Part shown: positions 54,365-63,503 of the stretch, one piece after another
Layout: every line of letters begins with the position of its first letter
Numbering within the stretch: position 1 is the first letter of the stretch
From: Sphingomicrobium sp.
GTDB taxonomy: Bacteria; Pseudomonadota; Alphaproteobacteria; Sphingomonadales; Sphingomonadaceae
Direction of reading: 5' to 3'
Length of the DNA stretch: 64,000 nt
Assembly (NCBI GenBank): GCA_035512655.1
Contig: DATKDM010000007.1
Location: forward strand, 5,215-69,214
Position numbers and translations under genes: made by a program
The notes under the pieces: model-generated
The model's database searches: none
What the model saw: the letters and a program-made list of their open reading frames with translations, nothing else
Told to the model about the DNA's origin: nothing

Positions 54365-55885
54365 ATGGATCGCAACGGTCGTCTCCACTGCCAGGTACGC
54401 CTGCTTGATGAAACCGGGTCGCCGGTTGGCTGCGGGTTCATCTGCGATGATCGGCAAATGATGACGTGCACTCATGTTGTCGCAAGCTGCGTCACTGGTC
54501 CGGTCGACAATGCCGTCGTGGAATGCCGCTTTCCGGGAACGCCAGACCATCGAGCCAGGCTTCGCGTGACCAAAAGCTTTCCGACGTCCGCTGGCGCAGG
54601 AGATCCGCAGGTTCGGTTGCTTCGCGACATCGCAGTGCTTGAGCTCGAGCCGGGGAGTAGCTTCCCTCCGGACTTTCAACCGGTGAGCAGCAGGCTGACG
54701 TCACTCGATCGGCATATGGAGTTCTTCGGAACGGGCATCATGAAGGGCTATCTGGACGGAATACAGATCGCCGGGCAAACCGGGGAACCTGTCGAGTCCA
54801 ACCGGGTGTTTGTGGCTGGGTTTCATCCCGATCAGTCGGTCCAGCCCGGCTGTTCCGGAGCGGCCATTTTTCATGGCCACGAGGGCTTGCTTGGATTGGT
54901 TGCAGAAGTCCAGCAGACCGCCATGGCGCTGATCATCCCGATCGAAATTTTGCGGAAAGTATTGTCGATCCGCGGCGCCAACCCGGCTTCGTCGACCCCG
55001 TCTGGGGGCGAAGCTATCGCCGGCAAGACGGCGGAACCGCTCAACAAGCGGATGCTTCGCGCCTTCAGTGATTTCGATCGCCACGACCAGTCCGCGGACT
55101 TTCGCGATGCCTTCGACCGTAAGTGGAATCAGAATCGCTCGGTGATGCTTTGCGCGATCGCTGGACTCGACGACGACGTGCCGAGCCATTGCCGGGACAA
55201 GTTCAGACATTACGACCTGAAGGATTTTCTGAGGCGCAATAACATCGCCGCGAGCAAGATCGACGCCTTGGAAATTTCGTGGCCGCTCCACGAGCGAAAG
55301 TTTGACGTCGAACGGGTCCTGAAACGGATGAAAGGCGTGCTGGCGGGGCATCTCCACGCTTCGGGCACCGAACCCGGGCAAATCCGGGAGGCGCTGAACA
55401 CCGACCTTCGGCAGCTGATCTTTTACAGCCAGCTCGATCAACGCACGTTCTATAGCCGTCCAAATCAACGGACCTTGGGGAAAAACCAACTCGATCTGCT
55501 ACAAAAATGGGCGGCGTACTTTAACGCAATTGATGATGAGCCGATCGATCGACCATTGATTCATTTTCTCATTATCAAACTGGATCCGGATGACTTCCAA
55601 GCCACGTCCCAGGAGCCGAACGCGCTGCTTACGGCTTTTTATCGCGACCTTATTGCACGCACCAATCGCAAGATGCCGCCAGACTCGGAAATCGAAAATA
55701 CCTCACTGCTCAACTATTTCGATATTGACTTTATCGATAATTGGATTGGGATGAATTCAGAGATCGTTGGACTGGACGAGCAATTGGCGGACGACGTTCG
55801 CGAAGCCGCGCGCGACACCTTTGCCGACGCCCATTACATTCGATTGAAGGACGTGGGGAATTGGATGAAGTCGCTGCCTGGTTGA
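54365..55885 (+). CDS. Trypsin-like serine peptidase fused to an inactive STAND (iSTAND)-like domain
   Basis: Triad TCTHVV / RDIAVL / PGCSGAA; C-terminal DFDRHDQSADFRDAF...CAIAGLDDD resembles iSTAND; adjacent to MoxR and vWA-like genes. Confidence 0.75.
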   Translation: MDRNGRLHCQVRLLDETGSPVGCGFICDDRQMMTCTHVVASCVTGPVDNAVVECRFPGTPDHRARLRVTKSFPTSAGAGDPQVRLLRDIAVLELEPGSSFPPDFQPVSSRLTSLDRHMEFFGTGIMKGYLDGIQIAGQTGEPVESNRVFVAGFHPDQSVQPGCSGAAIFHGHEGLLGLVAEVQQTAMALIIPIEILRKVLSIRGANPASSTPSGGEAIAGKTAEPLNKRMLRAFSDFDRHDQSADFRDAFDRKWNQNRSVMLCAIAGLDDDVPSHCRDKFRHYDLKDFLRRNNIAASKIDALEISWPLHERKFDVERVLKRMKGVLAGHLHASGTEPGQIREALNTDLRQLIFYSQLDQRTFYSRPNQRTLGKNQLDLLQKWAAYFNAIDDEPIDRPLIHFLIIKLDPDDFQATSQEPNALLTAFYRDLIARTNRKMPPDSEIENTSLLNYFDIDFIDNWIGMNSEIVGLDEQLADDVREAARDTFADAHYIRLKDVGNWMKSLPG

Positions 55886-55909
55886 TCGGCGACAAGTAAA
55901 GGGTTTGCC

Positions 55910-57010
55910 ATGGGGTTTGTAGCAGTCAGTCAAGACAGCCCGTTACGGCTGGTCACACCACTCGCTGAGGGACACAAGGCCGCCGGCTCCTACCGCCCCG
56001 CTCAGGGGCTTCGTGAAGCGTTCGACGTTGCGATGATGCTTGGCGTGCCCTTGCTCATCACCGGTGAGCCGGGCACCGGCAAAACGCGGGCTGCCTATTG
56101 GCTATGCCATGAGCTGGGCTTGCCCGCCCCGCAACCGCTTCGGTTCGACGTCAAATCCGGCTCAAGCGGGCGTGACCTCCTGTACAGCTTCGATGAAGTT
56201 GCCCGCTTCCGGGATGCCGCCGCTAATGAGTCTAAGCCTCTGATCGATTATCTGCAGCTCAACGCGCTCGGCGAAGCGATCGTACGAGCAGCGGGGGGTC
56301 AAGGCATCCTCACCGATATTGCAGGCCGGGAACTTAGTGGTGATCGCTTCGCAAGCGCGGAAAAGCTCATCACGCGCGCTTTTGGCGAGGACCTGGTTGC
56401 GGCCGGCGCGGCGCGTGCAGCATGGCTGGTGCCGGAGGATGCTGCGTTCGTCGAAGCGCTCCCTCAGCACTGCGCGGTGTTGATCGACGAACTCGACAAG
56501 GCGCCCCGCGACACCCCCAACGACCTGCTCGCGGAGATCGAAAACATGGGCTTTGCAATCCCGGAGATGGGAATTGCAATTCGATCCGATCCGAGCTTCC
56601 GGCCGATCGTAATTCTCACAAGCAATTCGGAAAAATCGCTGCCTGAGCCATTTCTGCGCCGCTGCGTTTATTTCGACATCCCGTTCCCGGTGGAAGCTGA
56701 GCTGGCCGAAATCGTTCAATCGGCGATCGCCAGTCTGACCAAAGGCAGCCCCCTGGTTACGAGCGCAATTGCGTTATTCGAGGCGATACGTGCCGACCGC
56801 GAGGTTGGCCGAAAGCCCGGCACGGCCGAATTGCTGGCTTGGATCGACATAATTGTTTCGCGGGAAAAGATCAGCGCGGACGAGAATCTCGCGAACCGGC
56901 TGAAGGATCAGCCCGACCTGCTCAATAATAGCTTGAGCGCGCTGCTCAAAACCCGCGTGGATATCGAGGCCGGCAAGCGCGTGCTCAGGGCGGCAGCGGC
57001 AAAAGGCTAG
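55910..57010 (+). CDS. MoxR-family AAA+ ATPase
   Basis: PLLITGEPGTGKT, DLLYSFDEVARFRD, VLIDELDKAPRDTPNDLL.E, TSNSEKSLPEPFLRRCVYFDIPFP, RKPGTAELLAW. Confidence 0.93.
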   Translation: MGFVAVSQDSPLRLVTPLAEGHKAAGSYRPAQGLREAFDVAMMLGVPLLITGEPGTGKTRAAYWLCHELGLPAPQPLRFDVKSGSSGRDLLYSFDEVARFRDAAANESKPLIDYLQLNALGEAIVRAAGGQGILTDIAGRELSGDRFASAEKLITRAFGEDLVAAGAARAAWLVPEDAAFVEALPQHCAVLIDELDKAPRDTPNDLLAEIENMGFAIPEMGIAIRSDPSFRPIVILTSNSEKSLPEPFLRRCVYFDIPFPVEAELAEIVQSAIASLTKGSPLVTSAIALFEAIRADREVGRKPGTAELLAWIDIIVSREKISADENLANRLKDQPDLLNNSLSALLKTRVDIEAGKRVLRAAAAKG

Positions 57011-57015
57011 CAACC

Positions 57016-59646
57016 GTGGCATCCGCGGCCATCGACGAAATCGATTATTTCGATCTTTCGGCAAGCGCTGCGCGACGACTGAAAGTCAGCCCTGCGAGCC
57101 TGATCCGCTTCGAAGCGATTCGCCTTCAGCTCGCGGCGCACGGCATTCGCAAGAGCGACCAGCGCATTCCGCTCTGGATTGCTCCGATGTTCTGCACGAC
57201 GCCGGAAGCGCGCCGGCTTTTCTTCGAAAGCTTCCCCAAAGAGCCGCCGAAGGTCGGACAATTGCCAAAGGACCGCAAGCGCAGCGCCGCCGCGGATCGC
57301 CGGGCCAAGCGCAGGCTCCGCACTCGACCTCGCGTCGGATGGCGAAAAACGCTGCTGGGGGCGATTCTGATTCTGGCTATTGCCGCTTTTGTCGCGCTTG
57401 TCGTCATACCTCAGTTCCGGGCCGAACCAGAGTTCGCCAACCAATCGACCGACCTGACCAACACAACTTCCCCGCCACCCGGTTCGAATTCACCGCCGCC
57501 AACAGAAGAGCCGCCGCGAGGGCCCACTTTACGAACCTGGCTGGCGCTGGGCCTGCCGGCATTGCTGGCCAGCGCTTACGTCATTTGGTTGCGCCGCCGC
57601 CGGCGCATCATCAGGCGCGACCACGCCCCCGCACCCGAACGATCGGTCAGGCTCGCCTTCGCGACCGGCCTCGAAAATTTCCTGGCGGAGCGCTCGCTTC
57701 GCAAGGCGATGGGCAACCTTCGCCGCCATCGCCCGGTCATCTCGTCCAAGCTCAATGTCCCCGCCGCGATCCGCGCCACCATCCGGTCGGCCGGCTTCCC
57801 GCAAATGCGCTACGGATTCCGTCCGCGCAGCCCCGAATATCTCGTGCTCAACGAAAGAGAGTCACCCACCGATCATCTTGCTGTGATCGGCCATGTAATG
57901 GCGAGGCGCATGACCGAGGAGCATGTTGCCCATAGCCGGTACGAATATTTCGGCGACCCGCGCCGGCTCCAGCGGATCGAACGTGGCTCGCCGGCTGGAG
58001 TTTTCCCGCTTTCGACCGAGCTCGCGCGGCATGACGGCGCTCGAGTGATGCTCTTGCAGGAAAGCCATGATTGCTTTGCCGAAGACAACAGCCCCGAGTG
58101 GCTGGCGCGCATCGCGGAAACCGAACGGCCGGTGCTGCTCAACCCCCGGTCGCCGGATGCCTGGGGATCGGCGGAAACCCGCCTGACTTCGCTTGGATTT
58201 GGGATCTTTTCGCCGAACGGCCGCGGAATCGCGGATTATGGCGATTATCTCAACACGACCGGAAACGTGCGGCGCCGGCTCGCCCGAAGCAATGCGACGC
58301 GCTTCGATCTTCCGGAGAGCTTGGCTCGCGACCGGAATTTGCTGCTCGACAACGAACCGCCGCTCGACTCGCTGATCGGCGAGCTGGTCACGGATCTCGA
58401 CCTTTGGCTCGACGAAGGCGGCGGCTACTGGCTGCGCGGCCTGGCGCTATTCCCCTATATCGATCCGGGGTTCACGGTCTTCCTCGGCAAGGCGCTGGTC
58501 GATGGCGACGGTCGGCCGCTGTTGGAGGAAGCCCGCTTCTTCGATCTTGCCCGTTTGCCCTGGCTTCGCGCCGGCCGGATGCCCGATTGGTTGCGCCGTG
58601 CATTGGTGCGAGGCCTCACGCCGGCGCAGCTCGAGGCGGCGACCGACGCCATCCAGGCCTTTCTCATGCCCGCGGACCAGCCCGAAGGCGAGGCCAAGAT
58701 CGACTTTTCGCGCGGCAAGGATCCGCGGCTGCGCAAGCGGCTTCTCGACTGGCTCAAGCTGACGCCGGAAAGCCTGCTGAGCGATCAACTGCTTATCGAG
58801 GCGCTGGGGGGCCGAGCGGCCGAGGAGCTCGGCCTCGAAGCGCCCAAAACGCTCCTGCGCCATTCGCGAAGCCTGTGGGCGAGCAACGAGGCACGTGCCG
58901 TGGCCATCGCCGCCGCGGCGACTATCGTCATCGGCGCATGGCAATGGCCCACGCTTTTCCCTGAACCCACGACGGCTCAAGCTACGACCGAAACGCGTAC
59001 TCCCACTCAAGGGGAAGTCGCTCCCTTCGAGCCTTTGTTTCCTGAAGAGGAGAAGGAACCGATTTTGGACGCCGCTGGCCGTGCGTTGGATGAAGCGGGC
59101 AACACGAGTGACGCCGGCAACGCGAATGCTGACGCCAATGCGTCAAATCTAGCGGGCAGCGCGAACGACGCCAAGGATAACACGAACGCAGCTAAAGATG
59201 CACTTGAAGCGGCCGCCGACGCCGTTGAACGGGCGGCCGAAGCGGCGACGACGTCTGAAACGGAGATCCTAGCTGGCCCGTTTGTATTATTCTTGGACGC
59301 CGACACGACGGTCATCACGCCCGATACCGAAGCAGCGCTCCGGAGAATAGCTGATGCATATAAGAATGAAGTTGGGTCACGGGGGAATATCGAGCCTGGC
59401 CTTGTTCAGATCATAGTCCGAATTTACTCCAATCCATCAGATGGTGCCTTGGGGAGACGTCTCGGGCGGTCGATTGAGGATTGGCTTACGGGACGTGGGA
59501 TACCGCCAAGCGAAATTGTAGTTCAGTCCGTTGGCGGAACAGTTCCGACTAAGGCCAGCATGGTAACGGCGAGCGCAGTGCAAAGGACCCTTCGGGTAGA
59601 AATCTCACTCGTCGCAAACTACGGAAAAGCTCCAACCGCAAACTGA
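57016..59646 (+). CDS. Membrane-spanning vWA-like component of a MoxR ternary system, with C-terminal OmpA-like domain
   Basis: WIAPMFCTTPE..RLFF; LNVPAAIRATIRSAGFP...PEYLVLNERES..DH...YFGDP; three hydrophobic helices; C-terminal LF.D..T...ALRRIA...DWL.GRGIP.SEI...G...P...RVEI. Confidence 0.75.
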   Translation: MASAAIDEIDYFDLSASAARRLKVSPASLIRFEAIRLQLAAHGIRKSDQRIPLWIAPMFCTTPEARRLFFESFPKEPPKVGQLPKDRKRSAAADRRAKRRLRTRPRVGWRKTLLGAILILAIAAFVALVVIPQFRAEPEFANQSTDLTNTTSPPPGSNSPPPTEEPPRGPTLRTWLALGLPALLASAYVIWLRRRRRIIRRDHAPAPERSVRLAFATGLENFLAERSLRKAMGNLRRHRPVISSKLNVPAAIRATIRSAGFPQMRYGFRPRSPEYLVLNERESPTDHLAVIGHVMARRMTEEHVAHSRYEYFGDPRRLQRIERGSPAGVFPLSTELARHDGARVMLLQESHDCFAEDNSPEWLARIAETERPVLLNPRSPDAWGSAETRLTSLGFGIFSPNGRGIADYGDYLNTTGNVRRRLARSNATRFDLPESLARDRNLLLDNEPPLDSLIGELVTDLDLWLDEGGGYWLRGLALFPYIDPGFTVFLGKALVDGDGRPLLEEARFFDLARLPWLRAGRMPDWLRRALVRGLTPAQLEAATDAIQAFLMPADQPEGEAKIDFSRGKDPRLRKRLLDWLKLTPESLLSDQLLIEALGGRAAEELGLEAPKTLLRHSRSLWASNEARAVAIAAAATIVIGAWQWPTLFPEPTTAQATTETRTPTQGEVAPFEPLFPEEEKEPILDAAGRALDEAGNTSDAGNANADANASNLAGSANDAKDNTNAAKDALEAAADAVERAAEAATTSETEILAGPFVLFLDADTTVITPDTEAALRRIADAYKNEVGSRGNIEPGLVQIIVRIYSNPSDGALGRRLGRSIEDWLTGRGIPPSEIVVQSVGGTVPTKASMVTASAVQRTLRVEISLVANYGKAPTAN

Positions 59647-59654
59647 CCCAGCCC

Positions 59655-60542
59655 CTAGACCCCGCACGCCTTTCCAATTGCGGTGGCGATGCGCTTGTCG
59701 GCGAGATAGCCCCCAATGGAGTGCGGATCGTCGAGGTCGTTTTCGACATCGAGCAGGTTTTCGATCCCGTCGGCAAAGGTCGCTTTGTCGAGCCCCTTTC
59801 CCAGGGTGATGAAGTCGTCGGGATCGCCGGCGTTGATCCAGCGCTCGACGCCCGGCGGCCTGGAAAACTCCGGACCGAGCGCCGCCTGCACGGCCATTAG
59901 CGGCAGCGGCGAGCCGACCGTGACGTAAAGCGGAACCGTCACCGGGTTTCCCTCCGAGGCCATCTGCCGAAGCAGCTTGAACGTCACCACGGTGCCGAGT
60001 GAGTGCGCGACGATGATGCTCGGCCCCTGCTCGAGCGCCGGCCCGACGATTGCATCGACAGCCCTCGCCGCTCCCGGTTTCTTCAAATAGGAATGCGCCT
60101 GCTTGAGGATGCGCATCACCAGTTTGCCGTGAAGCGGAGACACACGCTCGAGCAGTCGAACGATGGCGTTGAACCGGCGGTTCATGATCAACCCCTGCTC
60201 GTGGGCGAGGTCGCCGGACTGACGCGCGATCGCGCGTTGCTCGGCCGCGATCGCGGCCGGTCCGATGCCCGCCTCGCTCGCCGTTTCCATCAGCGCGCTG
60301 GCAAGAAACGCCGCTTCATCGGCATCGGGTTTCCCGTCAGGACCCTGCGACACGGCGACGACATCGCTGGTGTCGGACAGGCGCTTGAGCTCATCGCCGT
60401 AGAAAGGCACGTCGATCTCGAGCTGGTCGAGCGCGCCGGCTTTCCCCAGGCCACGGCAAATGTGGCAAACCCAGTCCTTGCGAAGCAATTCCTCGCTCTT
60501 GCCTTGCTGATTGATGCCGTGAACGAGAACCAGCCGGGTCAT
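59655..60542 (-). CDS. Alpha/beta hydrolase (lipase/esterase-like)
   Basis: LVLVHGINQ oxyanion motif, AHSLG nucleophile, TVGSPL, DPDDFIT, HSIGGYL. Confidence 0.85.
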   Translation of the reverse strand: MTRLVLVHGINQQGKSEELLRKDWVCHICRGLGKAGALDQLEIDVPFYGDELKRLSDTSDVVAVSQGPDGKPDADEAAFLASALMETASEAGIGPAAIAAEQRAIARQSGDLAHEQGLIMNRRFNAIVRLLERVSPLHGKLVMRILKQAHSYLKKPGAARAVDAIVGPALEQGPSIIVAHSLGTVVTFKLLRQMASEGNPVTVPLYVTVGSPLPLMAVQAALGPEFSRPPGVERWINAGDPDDFITLGKGLDKATFADGIENLLDVENDLDDPHSIGGYLADKRIATAIGKACGV

Positions 60543-62545
60543 CGATCGTCTCCGAAGATCAGATCGCCGAGGAGCGTCCCGCCCTCGGGCGTGAGAGTTG
60601 TAAACGGCGCGGAAGTGAGATGCTGGCGGATGGTGGCCAGACCTTCCGGCATAAGCTGCGGCTCGCCGTCATCGACCAGCTGCCAGCCCTGCCTCAGCCA
60701 TGGGAAGGTGCCCGCCACGACGCCCTCGACGGCGGGAGTGGCATCATACGCCCATTGGCTGTTCGCTTCGCTTTCGGTCCGTGGTGCACGCTTGGCCACG
60801 GCTGGAATACTCGCCACCACCACGCCGTTGCCACGCTCGGCCTTGATGCGGGCAAGCATCGCCACATCGAAGGGTATCGGCTGGTTTGCATTCGCAAAGA
60901 AATAGGCAATCTGGCGGATGCTTTCGACGTCCCCCTGCGAGTCATAGAGGTAGGCGGCCAGTGCGCCCAACATCGGATCCTGATGCTTCCCGTCTCGAAG
61001 CTCTAGCGCATAATCATAGGCCTCACCGCCTCGAAACATGCCGGCGCGGAGGTTAGCGACCGCCTCTTCCGCTTTCGCCTCGGCGCCCGCCATTCCGATT
61101 GGCCGATAAATGACGCTGACCGCTCCCGTCTCATCGATAGTGAATGTCTGAATGAACTTCGGAATCGCAGTCGTACCGAGCCAGCGACCGTCATCCAGCT
61201 CGACCAGCATGGGCAGCGGTCTTTGGAGTTCGAACTTGTGCGGGTCTCGAATCCGCCACCACTCCGGACTATCATCGTCACGCTCGACGATCTCCGGCTG
61301 ACCGATCAAGCCGCGAACGGCCTTCGCACCGGTTAGGCTGAACCCCGATCCGGTTTCAAAATGGGTCGGCCAATTTTCCGCACGGTAGGAATCGAGGAAG
61401 CCGCGCGCCTTCTCGTCACAGATGGATGCCTCGCGCTCGATCCGGGTGCGCTCTTCCTCGGGCGTTTCGGGTGGCGGCGACTCGGGGGGCGGAGGAGTCG
61501 GCGCCCGGGGAGCGATGCTTGCCGGCATACGCGGCCGTGCCCTGGTTGACGATTCCACACCGGGAACCCAATTGCTTACGCTCCCCGCAAACCCCAGATC
61601 GTTCAAAATAATGGCACCGGGAGTCGGCGCCGTCGCTGGCGCCGCATCCGGTGGCGCGGCTTTGGCTGCCTGCCCCACGGTCGACCAGCCGCGCTTGCCG
61701 CCGGCAGGCGCGCCGCCGTCGGGACCCATGGCTCCTGGCGGAGCAGGCGCGGGCCAGGCTTTTGGCGCCGGAGCCCCGGCGAGCGGCTCGGTGACGTAAA
61801 CGTCATCCGGATCGAGGAAGCCCGAAATGATGTCGGGGCGCAGCTCGACCTTGTAGAATGCGGCCTTGACCGGAACCTCGCTACGAAGATATTTGGCGAG
61901 GCTGCCGCTGGTGATGCGGCGCTGGTTACCAACCATGTGATCCGAAAATGCCGAAGGCTTATGGCCCCACAGCGCTTCCTCGATGACGCCGGTGAAAATG
62001 CAGCGGTCGTCATCCAGAGTGGCGCCCGGTATCATGTATGCAGCGCGGAACTTTGACGATGCCTTGAGCATGTCGATCAAAGGCAAATTTGGATCGTACG
62101 GCCCGCGTCCAAGGACGTTGTCTGACGTCAGGTCGGCCGTATCGGCATCCGCCGGCAGGGATCGGCAAGCATCGGAAATGATTGCGATTTGCTCGATTCC
62201 GAAGCGCTCGAGCTTGCGCTTCAGGCCACCGACGGCGACAGCCTCCTGCTCTTCGTGCCATTGCGACAGCAGCCACAAGTCTTCGGCTGCGTCGCGCGCC
62301 AGGCCGTGGCCGGCGAAATAGAGGATCAGCCTGTCGGTCTTGGTTCCTTGAGGCAGGAGTTTTTGCATTGCCTTTTTGACATCCTCAACGCCGACCGGCT
62401 TCTTGGAGTCGATCAGCAATTTGGTCTCGTACCCGGCCTTTTTGGCCCAGGCGTCCATCGCCTTGGCGCCGTTCACCGCACCCGGCAGATAATCGAGCGG
62501 CGGAGCGTCCGAAATACCGATTGCCAGACATGCCTTGCGTCCCAT
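60539..62545 (-). CDS. Caspase-family (peptidase C14, metacaspase-like) protein with Pro/Ala linker and unknown C-terminal domain
   Basis: LAIGIS...LPGAVNGA..M..W, LILYFAGHG (His), IISDACRS (Cys). Confidence 0.88.
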   Translation of the reverse strand: MGRKACLAIGISDAPPLDYLPGAVNGAKAMDAWAKKAGYETKLLIDSKKPVGVEDVKKAMQKLLPQGTKTDRLILYFAGHGLARDAAEDLWLLSQWHEEQEAVAVGGLKRKLERFGIEQIAIISDACRSLPADADTADLTSDNVLGRGPYDPNLPLIDMLKASSKFRAAYMIPGATLDDDRCIFTGVIEEALWGHKPSAFSDHMVGNQRRITSGSLAKYLRSEVPVKAAFYKVELRPDIISGFLDPDDVYVTEPLAGAPAPKAWPAPAPPGAMGPDGGAPAGGKRGWSTVGQAAKAAPPDAAPATAPTPGAIILNDLGFAGSVSNWVPGVESSTRARPRMPASIAPRAPTPPPPESPPPETPEEERTRIEREASICDEKARGFLDSYRAENWPTHFETGSGFSLTGAKAVRGLIGQPEIVERDDDSPEWWRIRDPHKFELQRPLPMLVELDDGRWLGTTAIPKFIQTFTIDETGAVSVIYRPIGMAGAEAKAEEAVANLRAGMFRGGEAYDYALELRDGKHQDPMLGALAAYLYDSQGDVESIRQIAYFFANANQPIPFDVAMLARIKAERGNGVVVASIPAVAKRAPRTESEANSQWAYDATPAVEGVVAGTFPWLRQGWQLVDDGEPQLMPEGLATIRQHLTSAPFTTLTPEGGTLLGDLIFGDDR

Positions 62546-62729
62546 GACGTCTCACTCCCCTATACCGAGACTTTGGTTTTAGGGCTTGGCTCCAAGCGAA
62601 AGTTTCAATCGCAACACGCGATGATCGGCCCGGCTATGCTGCGACTTTCCGGCGCTCTTGACAACCTGCCGCCGGAAGGGCTTCCTTTGACTCTGCTCGG
62701 CTCTTTCGCATCCACCTCGGGAGGTGCTC

Positions 62730-63503
62730 ATGAGCGTTAATCTTCAACAGGCGCGCAGCTACATCGCAGATGTGGATTTGCCGCCGCGGCCCTCGTCGGG
62801 TGCCATTCCGCAAGACGCAACGCCCAGCGCGCCGGTCTTCGACACCGTCAAGGAGCAGGCCGCCGTGGTCGGTTCCGAAGTCGTTTCGTTCATGGCTGGA
62901 GTCGATGCTGAAACGCGCGCGGCGATCTCCAATTGCGCGCTCCTCGCGCAGCTGGCGGCGAGCAAAAAGGTCGCTGACAAGGAGGATATCTACGCTTGGT
63001 ACGAAGCCTATTTCGACGTGCTGAAGGCGCTCGGCTGGGTGGTCCAGGACGGCGGTTTTGCTGAGTTCTCGGAGAGCAGCCAAGGCTTCGAAGTCCATGA
63101 GAAGATCATGGATGTCGCCGCAGTGCTGCTTGGTCCGGGAGCCGCGGCGTTGGCGGTCATCAAGACCACGCTGGACGCATTGAAGGCGATGAAATCCGAC
63201 AATGGCTGGCTGACCATTTTCCAACGTGAGAGCCAACATGCGAAAGCGGCGCGATTCCAGATCTCGCTGGTTCAACAGAGTAATACTGGCGACGTGATGG
63301 TCAGCATGATGGCGTTTGGAATCGAGGCCAGCAAGACGGTGACCCAGGTGCTGTTCTTCAAAATCAAAAAGAACAAGGCCAAGCTTCGGCACAATTCGGC
63401 CAAGCTTAGCATCGACTCAGCCTCGCTAGTCGATTTGGCGCCGGATATTCGCGACAGGGTCCGCGTTTACCAGCGCGCCTACGTCGCCAGCCTGGAGATC
63501 TGA
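62730..63503 (+). CDS. Evf-like / Cyt-fold putative membrane-active protein
   Basis: VGSEVVSF...SNCALLAQLAASKK...WYEAYFDVLKALGW...FQISL...AF......QVLFF matches my recollection of Evf-family proteins; GGGAGG RBS. Confidence 0.55.
   Translation: MSVNLQQARSYIADVDLPPRPSSGAIPQDATPSAPVFDTVKEQAAVVGSEVVSFMAGVDAETRAAISNCALLAQLAASKKVADKEDIYAWYEAYFDVLKALGWVVQDGGFAEFSESSQGFEVHEKIMDVAAVLLGPGAAALAVIKTTLDALKAMKSDNGWLTIFQRESQHAKAARFQISLVQQSNTGDVMVSMMAFGIEASKTVTQVLFFKIKKNKAKLRHNSAKLSIDSASLVDLAPDIRDRVRVYQRAYVASLEI

Follow-up and report, generated by a model that had tools for sequence, protein, structure and literature searches.

A caspase with two candidate latent effectors, one of them with a Cyt-like fold, in a putative suicide module of Sphingomicrobium sp.

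The locus described here raises the question of whether a bacterium may keep a protein with the fold of the Cyt toxins in its own cytoplasm, under the control of a caspase. The window, by which we mean the whole stretch of 64,000 nucleotides that was analysed, comes from an assembly of Sphingomicrobium sp. (GCA_035512655.1, contig DATKDM010000007.1, positions 5,215 to 69,214 of the forward strand), and close to its end the gene of a small Cyt-like protein stands back to back with a caspase gene, which in turn overlaps the gene of an alpha/beta-hydrolase. The genome is 2.46 Mb in 28 contigs, with an estimated completeness of 99.7% and a G+C content of about 60%, and it holds one copy of the Cyt-like gene. 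We consider it rather probable that this is a caspase-gated module, in which the caspase cuts two latent effectors, the Cyt-fold one in its N-terminal linker, for the purpose of suicide or defence. The parts of the module are the following.

62730 to 63503, forward strand: open reading frame (ORF) of 257 residues from an ATG, the Cyt-fold effector candidate, belonging to an unnamed family.
62546 to 62729, no strand: divergent intergenic region, 184 bp from start codon to start codon, with the ribosome-binding sites of both genes.
60539 to 62545, reverse strand: caspase ORF of 668 residues, matched by Pfam Peptidase_C14 and the PADLOC caspase model.
59655 to 60542, reverse strand: alpha/beta-hydrolase of 295 residues, second candidate substrate, with weak matches to Abhydrolase_6 and Ser_hydrolase; it overlaps the caspase stop by 4 bp.

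What kind of protein is the Cyt-like one? The ORF list gives an in-frame GTG at 62724 as an alternative start, which would make a form of 259 residues, but the sequence favours the 257-residue form because a Shine-Dalgarno GGGAGG lies 5 nt upstream of the ATG at 62730; the caspase ATG is preceded by GGGGAG on the reverse strand. A simple scan of the 184 bp for a sigma-70 consensus found no promoter, and the idea of a shared divergent promoter is taken from the arrangement of the genes. A preliminary description of this DNA had reported a 257-residue protein with an N-terminal extension of about 40 residues and a Pro-rich linker, and the ORF and an AlphaFold2 (AF2) model built on 35 diverse homologues agree with it. 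In the model a short helix is followed by a linker of low confidence at residues 15-40 (predicted local distance difference test, pLDDT, about 54), and the folded core begins near residue 40. Residues 17-38 read LPPRPSSGAIPQDATPSAPVFD, and the N-terminal helix has an A-R-x-[FY]-[VI] pattern that is conserved family-wide. The single Cys of the same description is present, at position 68, but most homologues have Ser in its place, so that it is no family feature and lends no support to an Evf-like lipidation. The elements of the protein are listed here, with ↓ marking a predicted scissile bond.

62742 to 62771, forward strand: N-terminal helix, residues 5-14, proposed to be a pro-peptide or latch (AF2 pLDDT 88-89).
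62772 to 62840, forward strand: Pro-rich linker, residues 15-37, with the predicted cleavage site A-I-P-Q28↓D29-A-T (low pLDDT and motif; the Gln28 codon is 62811-62813).
63093 to 63188, forward strand: hydrophobic helix-turn-helix, residues 122-153, with the core IMDVAAVLLGPGAAALAVI, a candidate membrane-inserting hairpin (AF2 helices 122-133 and 138-153).

The AF2 model, with a mean pLDDT of 76 and a predicted template modelling score of 0.77, has its core helices at residues 60-80, 87-100, 122-133 and 138-153 and its strands at 104-115, 170-183, 189-205 and 217-228, and the C-terminal helix at 230-254 is confidently modelled as a component of the fold. This is the architecture of the Cyt superfamily, long antiparallel strands in a sheet with helix hairpins over it. 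When the model was compared with the PDB by Foldseek, the best 12 matches were all Cyt1Aa (as protoxin or toxin), Cyt2Aa, Cyt2Ba, Evf or volvatoxin A2 (E 4e-7 to 4e-3, probability 0.99-1.00, template modelling (TM) score 0.29-0.45), and below the twelfth there was a sharp fall to unrelated folds of low probability. In Pfam, Bac_thur_toxin (PF01338) reached 23.4 bits (E 4.9e-5) against a gathering cut-off of 25, matching only profile positions 120-196, which correspond to residues 142-218 of the 259-residue form; the match opens inside the second helix of the hairpin and then spans two long strands. The same family was the top and most frequent weak Pfam match among the homologues, found in 8 of the 35 at E <= 0.1. 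Searching the PDB with the sequence itself and with a profile of the family alignment returned no Cyt protein and nothing relevant, and against viral structures Foldseek gave only weak matches to giant-virus and levivirus proteins, with no sign of phage homologues. The hydropathy of the protein peaks at residues 126-144 (19-residue Kyte-Doolittle mean 2.09), within the hairpin, where LLGP..ALAV is conserved among the homologues. The earlier call of a Cyt-like fold is thus right as far as the modelled structure goes, and the protein is a remote fold relative that falls short of membership in the Pfam family. CATASP, Pepco and EACC1 were considered as identities for the protein and discarded, as their sizes and architectures differ; Pfam EACC1 gave a single chance-level match among 35 members.

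The neighbouring gene had been described as a caspase, and this was borne out. Peptidase_C14 matches residues 3-130 (E 7.2e-8, 32.8 bits against a cut-off of 21.4), the PADLOC caspase model matches with E 2.3e-11, and His80, Cys127 and the motifs FAGHG and SDACR are invariant in 20 caspase orthologues. The protein has the caspase/hemoglobinase fold of clan CD, family C14, together with the His-Gly ... Asp-x-Cys dyad, and the Foldseek matches of its model are the metacaspase Yca1, the MALT1 paracaspase and GSU0716 (E 4e-7 onward). After the catalytic domain comes a disordered Pro-rich linker, residues 270-360 in the AF2 model, and then a second domain.

61796 to 62545, reverse strand: catalytic domain of the caspase (clan CD, C14-like), residues 1-250, with His80 and Cys127 (Pfam, PADLOC and Foldseek).
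60542 to 61378, reverse strand: conserved C-terminal domain of the caspase, residues about 390-668, a candidate sensor or regulator (conservation and AF2).

The C-terminal domain is conserved in 20 of 20 orthologues and is confidently modelled, residues 400-482 being rich in beta-strands and residues 489-667 helical. No Pfam family matched it, and the top 50 PDB fold matches of the caspase all align to the N-terminal caspase domain. It is likely that this domain acts as a sensor or regulator. As a side observation, Peptidase_C14 detects only 4 of roughly 19 long caspases of this kind at E <= 1e-3, which means that the long-caspase clade is largely invisible to routine annotation.

Is the pairing of the two genes a general one? 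Close homologues of the Cyt-like protein number more than 707, nearly all of them 250-265 residues long and annotated as hypothetical, and at E <= 1e-3 the family comprises 1,711 clusters at 50% identity. We sampled 64 loci from species-representative genomes, which with the window make 65, and clustered their neighbouring ORFs; the phyla covered were Actinomycetota, Myxococcota, Acidobacteriota, Planctomycetota, Verrucomicrobiota, Gemmatimonadota, Nitrospirota, Chloroflexota, Thermodesulfobacteriota and Pseudomonadota. A protease gene was found within 2 kb of the Cyt-like gene in 42 of the 65, and the density of protease genes was 2.1 per 10 kb at 0-2 kb as compared to 0.05 per 10 kb at 6-10 kb, about 40 times higher. 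The same two-domain caspase adjoins the Cyt-like gene in 20 loci, the window counted, and is divergent from it in 19. The other partner proteases confirmed by Pfam are CHAT with TPR-S, small C14, clostripain C11, Trypsin_2 (which comes with TPR-S or a metallophosphoesterase), subtilisin S8 and papain C1, and further partners are a HExxH protein with a metallo-beta-lactamase (MBL) hydrolase and TIR-TPR proteins. When the Pfam families of all immediate neighbours were counted without bias, TPR-S, CHAT, Peptidase_C14, Metallophos and Trypsin_2 came first. The protease linkage of the homologues that had been expected was in this way confirmed, with many protease classes and some caspase fusions. 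The proposal that the nearby trypsin could serve as the activator found no support; most caspase/Cyt-like pairs have no trypsin neighbour. In Opitutus (L018) it is a papain-family C1 protease that replaces the caspase. In two loci (L013 and L050) the Cyt-like gene lies downstream of the HExxH protein and the MBL-fold hydrolase; MBL hydrolases are another published type of protease-activated effector, and multi-effector protease modules may therefore be common.

Among the longer homologues there are fusions in several orders, C14-Cyt, Cyt-C14, nSTAND1-TIR-Cyt with the Cyt domain C-terminal, and Cyt-TIR-TPR-S (P0242, P0257, P0249, P0314 and P0324), a pattern that is the signature of an effector domain in bacterial conflict or immune systems. 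The three fusions that were read, both caspase orders and the STAND-TIR one, have kept the N-terminal helix and the linker of the Cyt module. In P0242 the stretch that joins the caspase to the Cyt core contains LPRRRRP, a hint at self-processing.

These neighbourhoods bear on another explanation, that the protein is an exported toxin or colonisation factor of the Cyt/Evf kind, directed against other organisms, for example as cargo of an extracellular contractile injection system (eCIS), and that the protease only matures it. All characterised members of the fold do act on the membranes of other organisms. The Cyt-like protein of the window, on the other hand, has no signal peptide or recognisable secretion tag, its neighbours throughout the family are parts of intracellular conflict systems (TPR-S, TIR, STAND, CHAT and caspases) and not secretion genes, an association with an eCIS was seen only in the window and its close relative, and the same three-gene module is found elsewhere beside Druantia and restriction genes. 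We regard export as improbable.

A simpler explanation for the arrangement would be that the adjacency is incidental, a clustering in a defence island where the caspase serves the hydrolase only and the Cyt-like protein works independently or with a cell-wall hydrolase. The two genes diverge and are not co-transcribed, a substrate of a known type already lies downstream of the caspase, and the nearest caspase relatives of the window (L065 and L066) carry the hydrolase only, all of which would fit. In a tree made from the Cyt-like core, with the linker left out, the caspase-linked members nevertheless form one clade (Shimodaira-Hasegawa-like approximate likelihood ratio test, SH-aLRT, 99) that covers at least 7 phyla, which implies that the Cyt-like protein and the caspase travel as a unit; the orthologous pairs form one clade on the caspase tree as well, and both proteins of the window group with Burkholderiaceae pairs. 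The fusions also speak against chance, as does the occurrence of all three genes in other loci, the window not being the only one with both effectors and the caspase. In L147, a close relative, the synteny is as in the window; in L148 a hydrolase-caspase/Cyt-like module has a trypsin/TIR protein, an nSTAND1 NTPase and an integrase as its neighbours; and in L149 and L150 the Cyt-like protein, the caspase and the hydrolase make up one operon, next to DruA (Druantia) and a subunit of a type I restriction system (HsdR in L149). Both the setting in defence islands and the operon form count against an adjacency by chance, and we hold the incidental explanation to be very improbable.

An alignment of the N-termini by the class of the linked protease showed that the linker, to which the preliminary description had drawn attention, is the part of the protein that varies with that class. 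The linkers of the long-caspase-linked members follow the pattern D-L-S-G-T-P-R-G-[IV]-[IVL]-x-[Q/M]-[D/G/S]-A-A, and that of the window reads D-L-P-P-R-P-S-S-G-A-I-P-Q-D-A-T. Of the members linked to the long caspase, 18 of 19 genomic and 26 of 26 metagenomic ones carry a motif [IVL]-x-[Q/M/L]-[DGS]-A, 44 of 45 together, the key position being Gln in about 37 of the 45, Met in 6 and Leu in 2. None of the 27 members linked to CHAT, C11, short C14, S8, trypsin or HExxH proteases has it; the CHAT- and C11-linked linkers have P-x-R-G instead, and the trypsin-linked ones are without any Arg. Two orphans from Gemmatimonadaceae (L019 and L024), which lie inside the caspase-linked clade, have lost the caspase and with it the Q/M motif. 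By analogy to the published R↓G sites, P-R↓G was also considered as the cut site and was downgraded, as the window and its nearest relatives have R-P; the Q/M motif was preferred because it is near-universal in the caspase-linked clade. The Cyt-like protein would most likely be cut after Gln28 (A-I-P-Q↓D-A), a position that we propose above all because the hydrolase of the caspase clade and the Cyt-like linker share the Q/M motif.

That hydrolase had been passed over in the preliminary description. It is a candidate second substrate, translationally coupled to the caspase. In a reciprocal search, metagenomes were queried with the caspase alignment, which gave 80 loci. Where there was room upstream of the caspase, a Cyt-like gene was present in about 31 of 49 loci, and in the remaining ones no Cyt-like gene was found, a hidden Markov model search included; in 22 metagenome loci a caspase of this family is immediately followed by a hydrolase homologue. 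The caspase tree shows 4-5 swaps of partner between the Cyt-like protein and the alpha/beta-hydrolase, the window falling within a mixed clade, which implies that the two behave as interchangeable cargo of one protease family. Two conserved dipeptides in the hydrolase are predicted to be cleaved.

60345 to 60347, reverse strand: predicted hydrolase cleavage site Q66↓G67 (conserved Q-G).
60195 to 60197, reverse strand: predicted hydrolase cleavage site Q116↓G117 (conserved Q-G).

At the first site, A-[IV]-A-Q-G, Gln is found in 112 and Gly in 113 of 117 homologues, and at the second, V-E-Q-G/S, Gln is found in 101 of 117. Both dipeptides sit in otherwise variable loops, with Met or Glu occasionally in place of Gln; in the metagenome hydrolases the minority residue is Met, and it then occurs at both sites of the same protein. 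A caspase-like protease of Lysobacter, with Cys129 as its catalytic residue, cleaves the adjacent alpha/beta-hydrolase at R73↓G and R117↓G into fragments of 8.1, 4.7 and 19.8 kDa, and these fragments kill E. coli (Evans et al. 2025, bioRxiv 10.1101/2025.11.14.688446). Cuts after Gln66 and Gln116 of the window hydrolase would give fragments calculated at 7.4, 5.0 and 19.1 kDa; the sites were equated with R73 and R117 by position and fragment size, not by alignment. All three candidate sites in the window have Gln, Q28↓D29 in the Cyt-like protein and Q66↓G67 and Q116↓G117 in the hydrolase, and it appears from the sequences that the long-caspase clade recognises [IV]-x-Q/M↓G in the hydrolase and [IVL]-x-Q/M↓D/G/S in the Cyt-like linker. 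Hydrolases of the window type have Q-G, and the Lysobacter relative of Evans et al. has R-G at its cut sites, which suggests that a single protease-effector family has changed its P1 specificity from Arg to Gln (or Met).

How could such a module work? In the reading that we favour, the locus is a three-gene protease-effector module like those that bacteria employ for abortive infection and in conflict systems. A trigger would activate the latent 668-residue caspase, perhaps sensed by its C-terminal domain, and the caspase would control two unrelated latent death effectors, the co-transcribed hydrolase zymogen and the divergent Cyt-fold protein. A cut after Gln28 would free the N-terminal helix, of 3 kDa, from the Cyt-fold protein, whereupon the hydrophobic helical hairpin and the long beta-strands of the 24.8-kDa core would become exposed. 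By analogy with the Cyt toxins the freed core may bind and disrupt the cytoplasmic membrane from the inside, so that the cell is killed or arrested, and in parallel the hydrolase would be activated by the cuts after Gln66 and Gln116. The computed support for this consists of the fold, the protease linkage, the fusions, the linker covariation, the partner swapping and the shared Q-G/D motif; the cleavage, its position, the membrane damage, the trigger and the purpose in defence are what we infer.

Several observations weigh against this reading. The fold similarity is moderate, with the TM scores given above and identities of 10-18%, the Pfam score is below the gathering cut-off, and the AF2 model contains two low-confidence loops. 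To our knowledge no pore formation has been described for Evf (PDB 2w3y), a fold relative that binds lipid, so the fold is no guarantee of cytolysis. No NCBIfam or PADLOC model matches the Cyt-like protein, which leaves it without an independent defence annotation, and 17 of the 65 loci have no protease nearby. In the window the Cyt-like and caspase genes are divergent, and their co-regulation is assumed. As to the cut site, the P-R-G that is common in the caspase-linked clade is missing from the window linker, which has R-P in its place, and Gln at P1 would, as far as we know, be an unusual specificity for a clan CD protease. The way in which the hydrolase sites were equated with the published ones counts here as well, and the one tested relative cuts after Arg (Evans et al. 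2025, bioRxiv 10.1101/2025.11.14.688446).

It is also conceivable that the Cyt-fold protein is not an effector at all and instead acts as a regulator or adaptor of the caspase, either, for example, as a pseudo-substrate inhibitor, similar to an antitoxin, with its N-terminal linker lodged in the active site, or as an activator that senses membrane or lipid, with the hydrolase or a broad proteolysis as the effector. The co-evolution of the linker with the protease would fit an inhibitor or docking peptide just as well, the lipid binding of Evf mentioned above would fit a sensor, and caspase-like proteases without effectors can defend alone (Evans et al. 2025). The distribution of the genes is harder to reconcile with such a role. 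Of the Cyt-linked caspases 35 of 39 have no hydrolase or other effector, and these systems would have no executioner unless the caspase itself kills. Furthermore, the caspase tree shows the Cyt-like gene and the hydrolase taking one another's place, the behaviour of interchangeable effectors, the Cyt domain holds the effector position in the STAND-TIR fusions, and a pairing with at least six unrelated protease folds is hard to explain for a specific inhibitor but easy for a substrate. A regulatory role is in our opinion unlikely.

Caspase gating of the two effectors can also be extended into a bolder proposal. One caspase with Gln (or Met) at P1, a specificity without precedent, would license both a lipase-like hydrolase and a Cyt-fold membrane breaker through [IV]-x-Q↓[G/D], the Cyt fold would primarily be that of an intracellular protease-gated suicide effector of bacterial immunity, with about 1,700 clusters and with fusions to NLR-like STAND, TIR and caspase domains, of which the insecticidal Cyt toxins, volvatoxin and Evf are exported offshoots, and in some loci the protein would have a holin-like role. 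In its entirety we find this tentative and rather doubtful. If the holin-like role is true, the Cyt-fold protein would let adjacent cell-wall hydrolases, which have no signal peptide, reach the wall.

Among the closest known systems are the bacterial gasdermins (Johnson et al. 2022). These are likewise signal-less cytoplasmic proteins of roughly 260 residues beside a protease, with the same range of proteases (caspase-like, CHAT, trypsin or subtilisin), a short terminal peptide is presumed to hold them inactive, and they are predicted to permeabilise the membrane and kill the cell. The linkage to a dedicated protease is found in both families, for the Cyt-like one in the 42 of 65 loci given above. 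The fold, however, is a different one, with no gasdermin among the Foldseek PDB, Pfam or PADLOC matches of the Cyt-like protein, the disordered element that is matched to the protease is N-terminal and not C-terminal, and the family lacks a conserved N-terminal Cys for palmitoylation.

The caspase and hydrolase resemble the LcCaspase/LcHydrolase pair of Lysobacter capsici AZ78, with an intact His/Cys dyad (catalytic Cys127 as compared to Cys129) and an overlapping hydrolase of 295 residues with two conserved X↓G motifs and, as described, fragments of similar size. The conserved residue before the Gly differs, Gln (occasionally Met or Glu) and not Arg, and the window adds a third gene, that of the Cyt-fold protein. 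With Cyt1Aa, Cyt2Aa, Cyt2Ba, volvatoxin A2 and the Evf of Erwinia the protein shares the predicted alpha/beta fold. Cyt toxins are activated by the proteolytic loss of an N-terminal propeptide, which has a part in self-inhibition and masks the lipid-binding surface (PMC7052140). Those proteins are released against other organisms and cut by the gut proteases of the target, whereas the present family is cytoplasmic, with a dedicated linked protease and immune-type sensor domains, and the helical hairpin of the window protein is markedly hydrophobic in comparison. Pepco (Trypco) and EACC1 are also small non-enzymatic proteins; the proteases encoded next to them are caspase-like or trypsin-like and carry diverse sensors as fusions, and one cleavage releases the pore-forming activity of Pepco and EACC1 (Evans et al. 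2025). Their families and folds differ from the Cyt-like one, Pepco being cut in its C-terminal tail and EACC1 shedding an autoinhibitory domain.

The logic of a protease with a latent pore former is already known; the effector family, the N-terminal gating, the apparently Gln-directed caspase and the dual-effector arrangement vary it in new ways. None of the ten known or predicted protease-linked effector families surveyed by Evans et al. is Cyt-fold (bioRxiv 10.1101/2025.11.14.688446), and a full-text literature search found no paper that ties a Cyt-fold protein to protease-gated bacterial systems, with an earlier description in PMC7685563 or PMC10681802 being possible. The gating of death effectors by proteases is coming to light as one of the main principles of bacterial immunity, in parallel to the caspase-gasdermin pyroptosis of animals, with gasdermin, Pepco, EACC1, the MBL nuclease and the alpha/beta-hydrolase as examples. 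If our reading is true, a large Cyt-fold family that crosses phyla would be a further class of pore or membrane effectors, and the fold of Cyt, volvatoxin and Evf would gain a cellular origin and context. The locus would also make a compact test system, one caspase and two substrates with an apparently common cut motif, Q↓G or Q↓D. Attention would further be drawn to a divergent clade of caspases, which Pfam-based annotation at present mostly misses.

A further gene reaches into the window on the other side of the Cyt-like gene.

63518 to 64000, reverse strand: 3' part of a gene for 567 residues, convergent with the Cyt-like gene across a gap of 14 bp (full gene L146:1733-3436).

Its product lacks a signal peptide, and its sequence matched nothing in Pfam or the PDB. 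By eye it looks like a cell-wall hydrolase, with a lysozyme-like N-terminus, an SH3-like middle and a Cys/His amidase-like C-terminus, and its membership in the module is uncertain. In Pseudomonas putida (L050) the Cyt-like gene is directly preceded by a homologue with SH3 and amidase parts. A fixed fourth component was considered and found unsupported, as the 567-residue gene is not homologous to the gene for 588 residues at the equivalent position in L148. Genes related to the cell wall are also seen near other members of the family, PG_binding_1 with CHAP in L149, a weak PG_binding_1 in L148 and a glucosaminidase/ankyrin giant in L016, L036 and L060, and a logic like that of holin and endolysin may lie behind these recurring neighbours.

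The module is adjoined in the window, at 54365-59646 on the forward strand, by genes for a trypsin-iSTAND protein, a MoxR-like AAA ATPase and a membrane protein of 876 residues. This neighbourhood could be an upstream sensor and protease cascade, or merely a case of clustering in a defence island. In Burkholderiaceae the caspase/Cyt-like loci have a gene with a trypsin domain 4-6 kb away, in L148 the three genes have a different pair next to them, trypsin/TIR and nSTAND1, and in L147 the relative of the 876-residue membrane protein matches OmpA.

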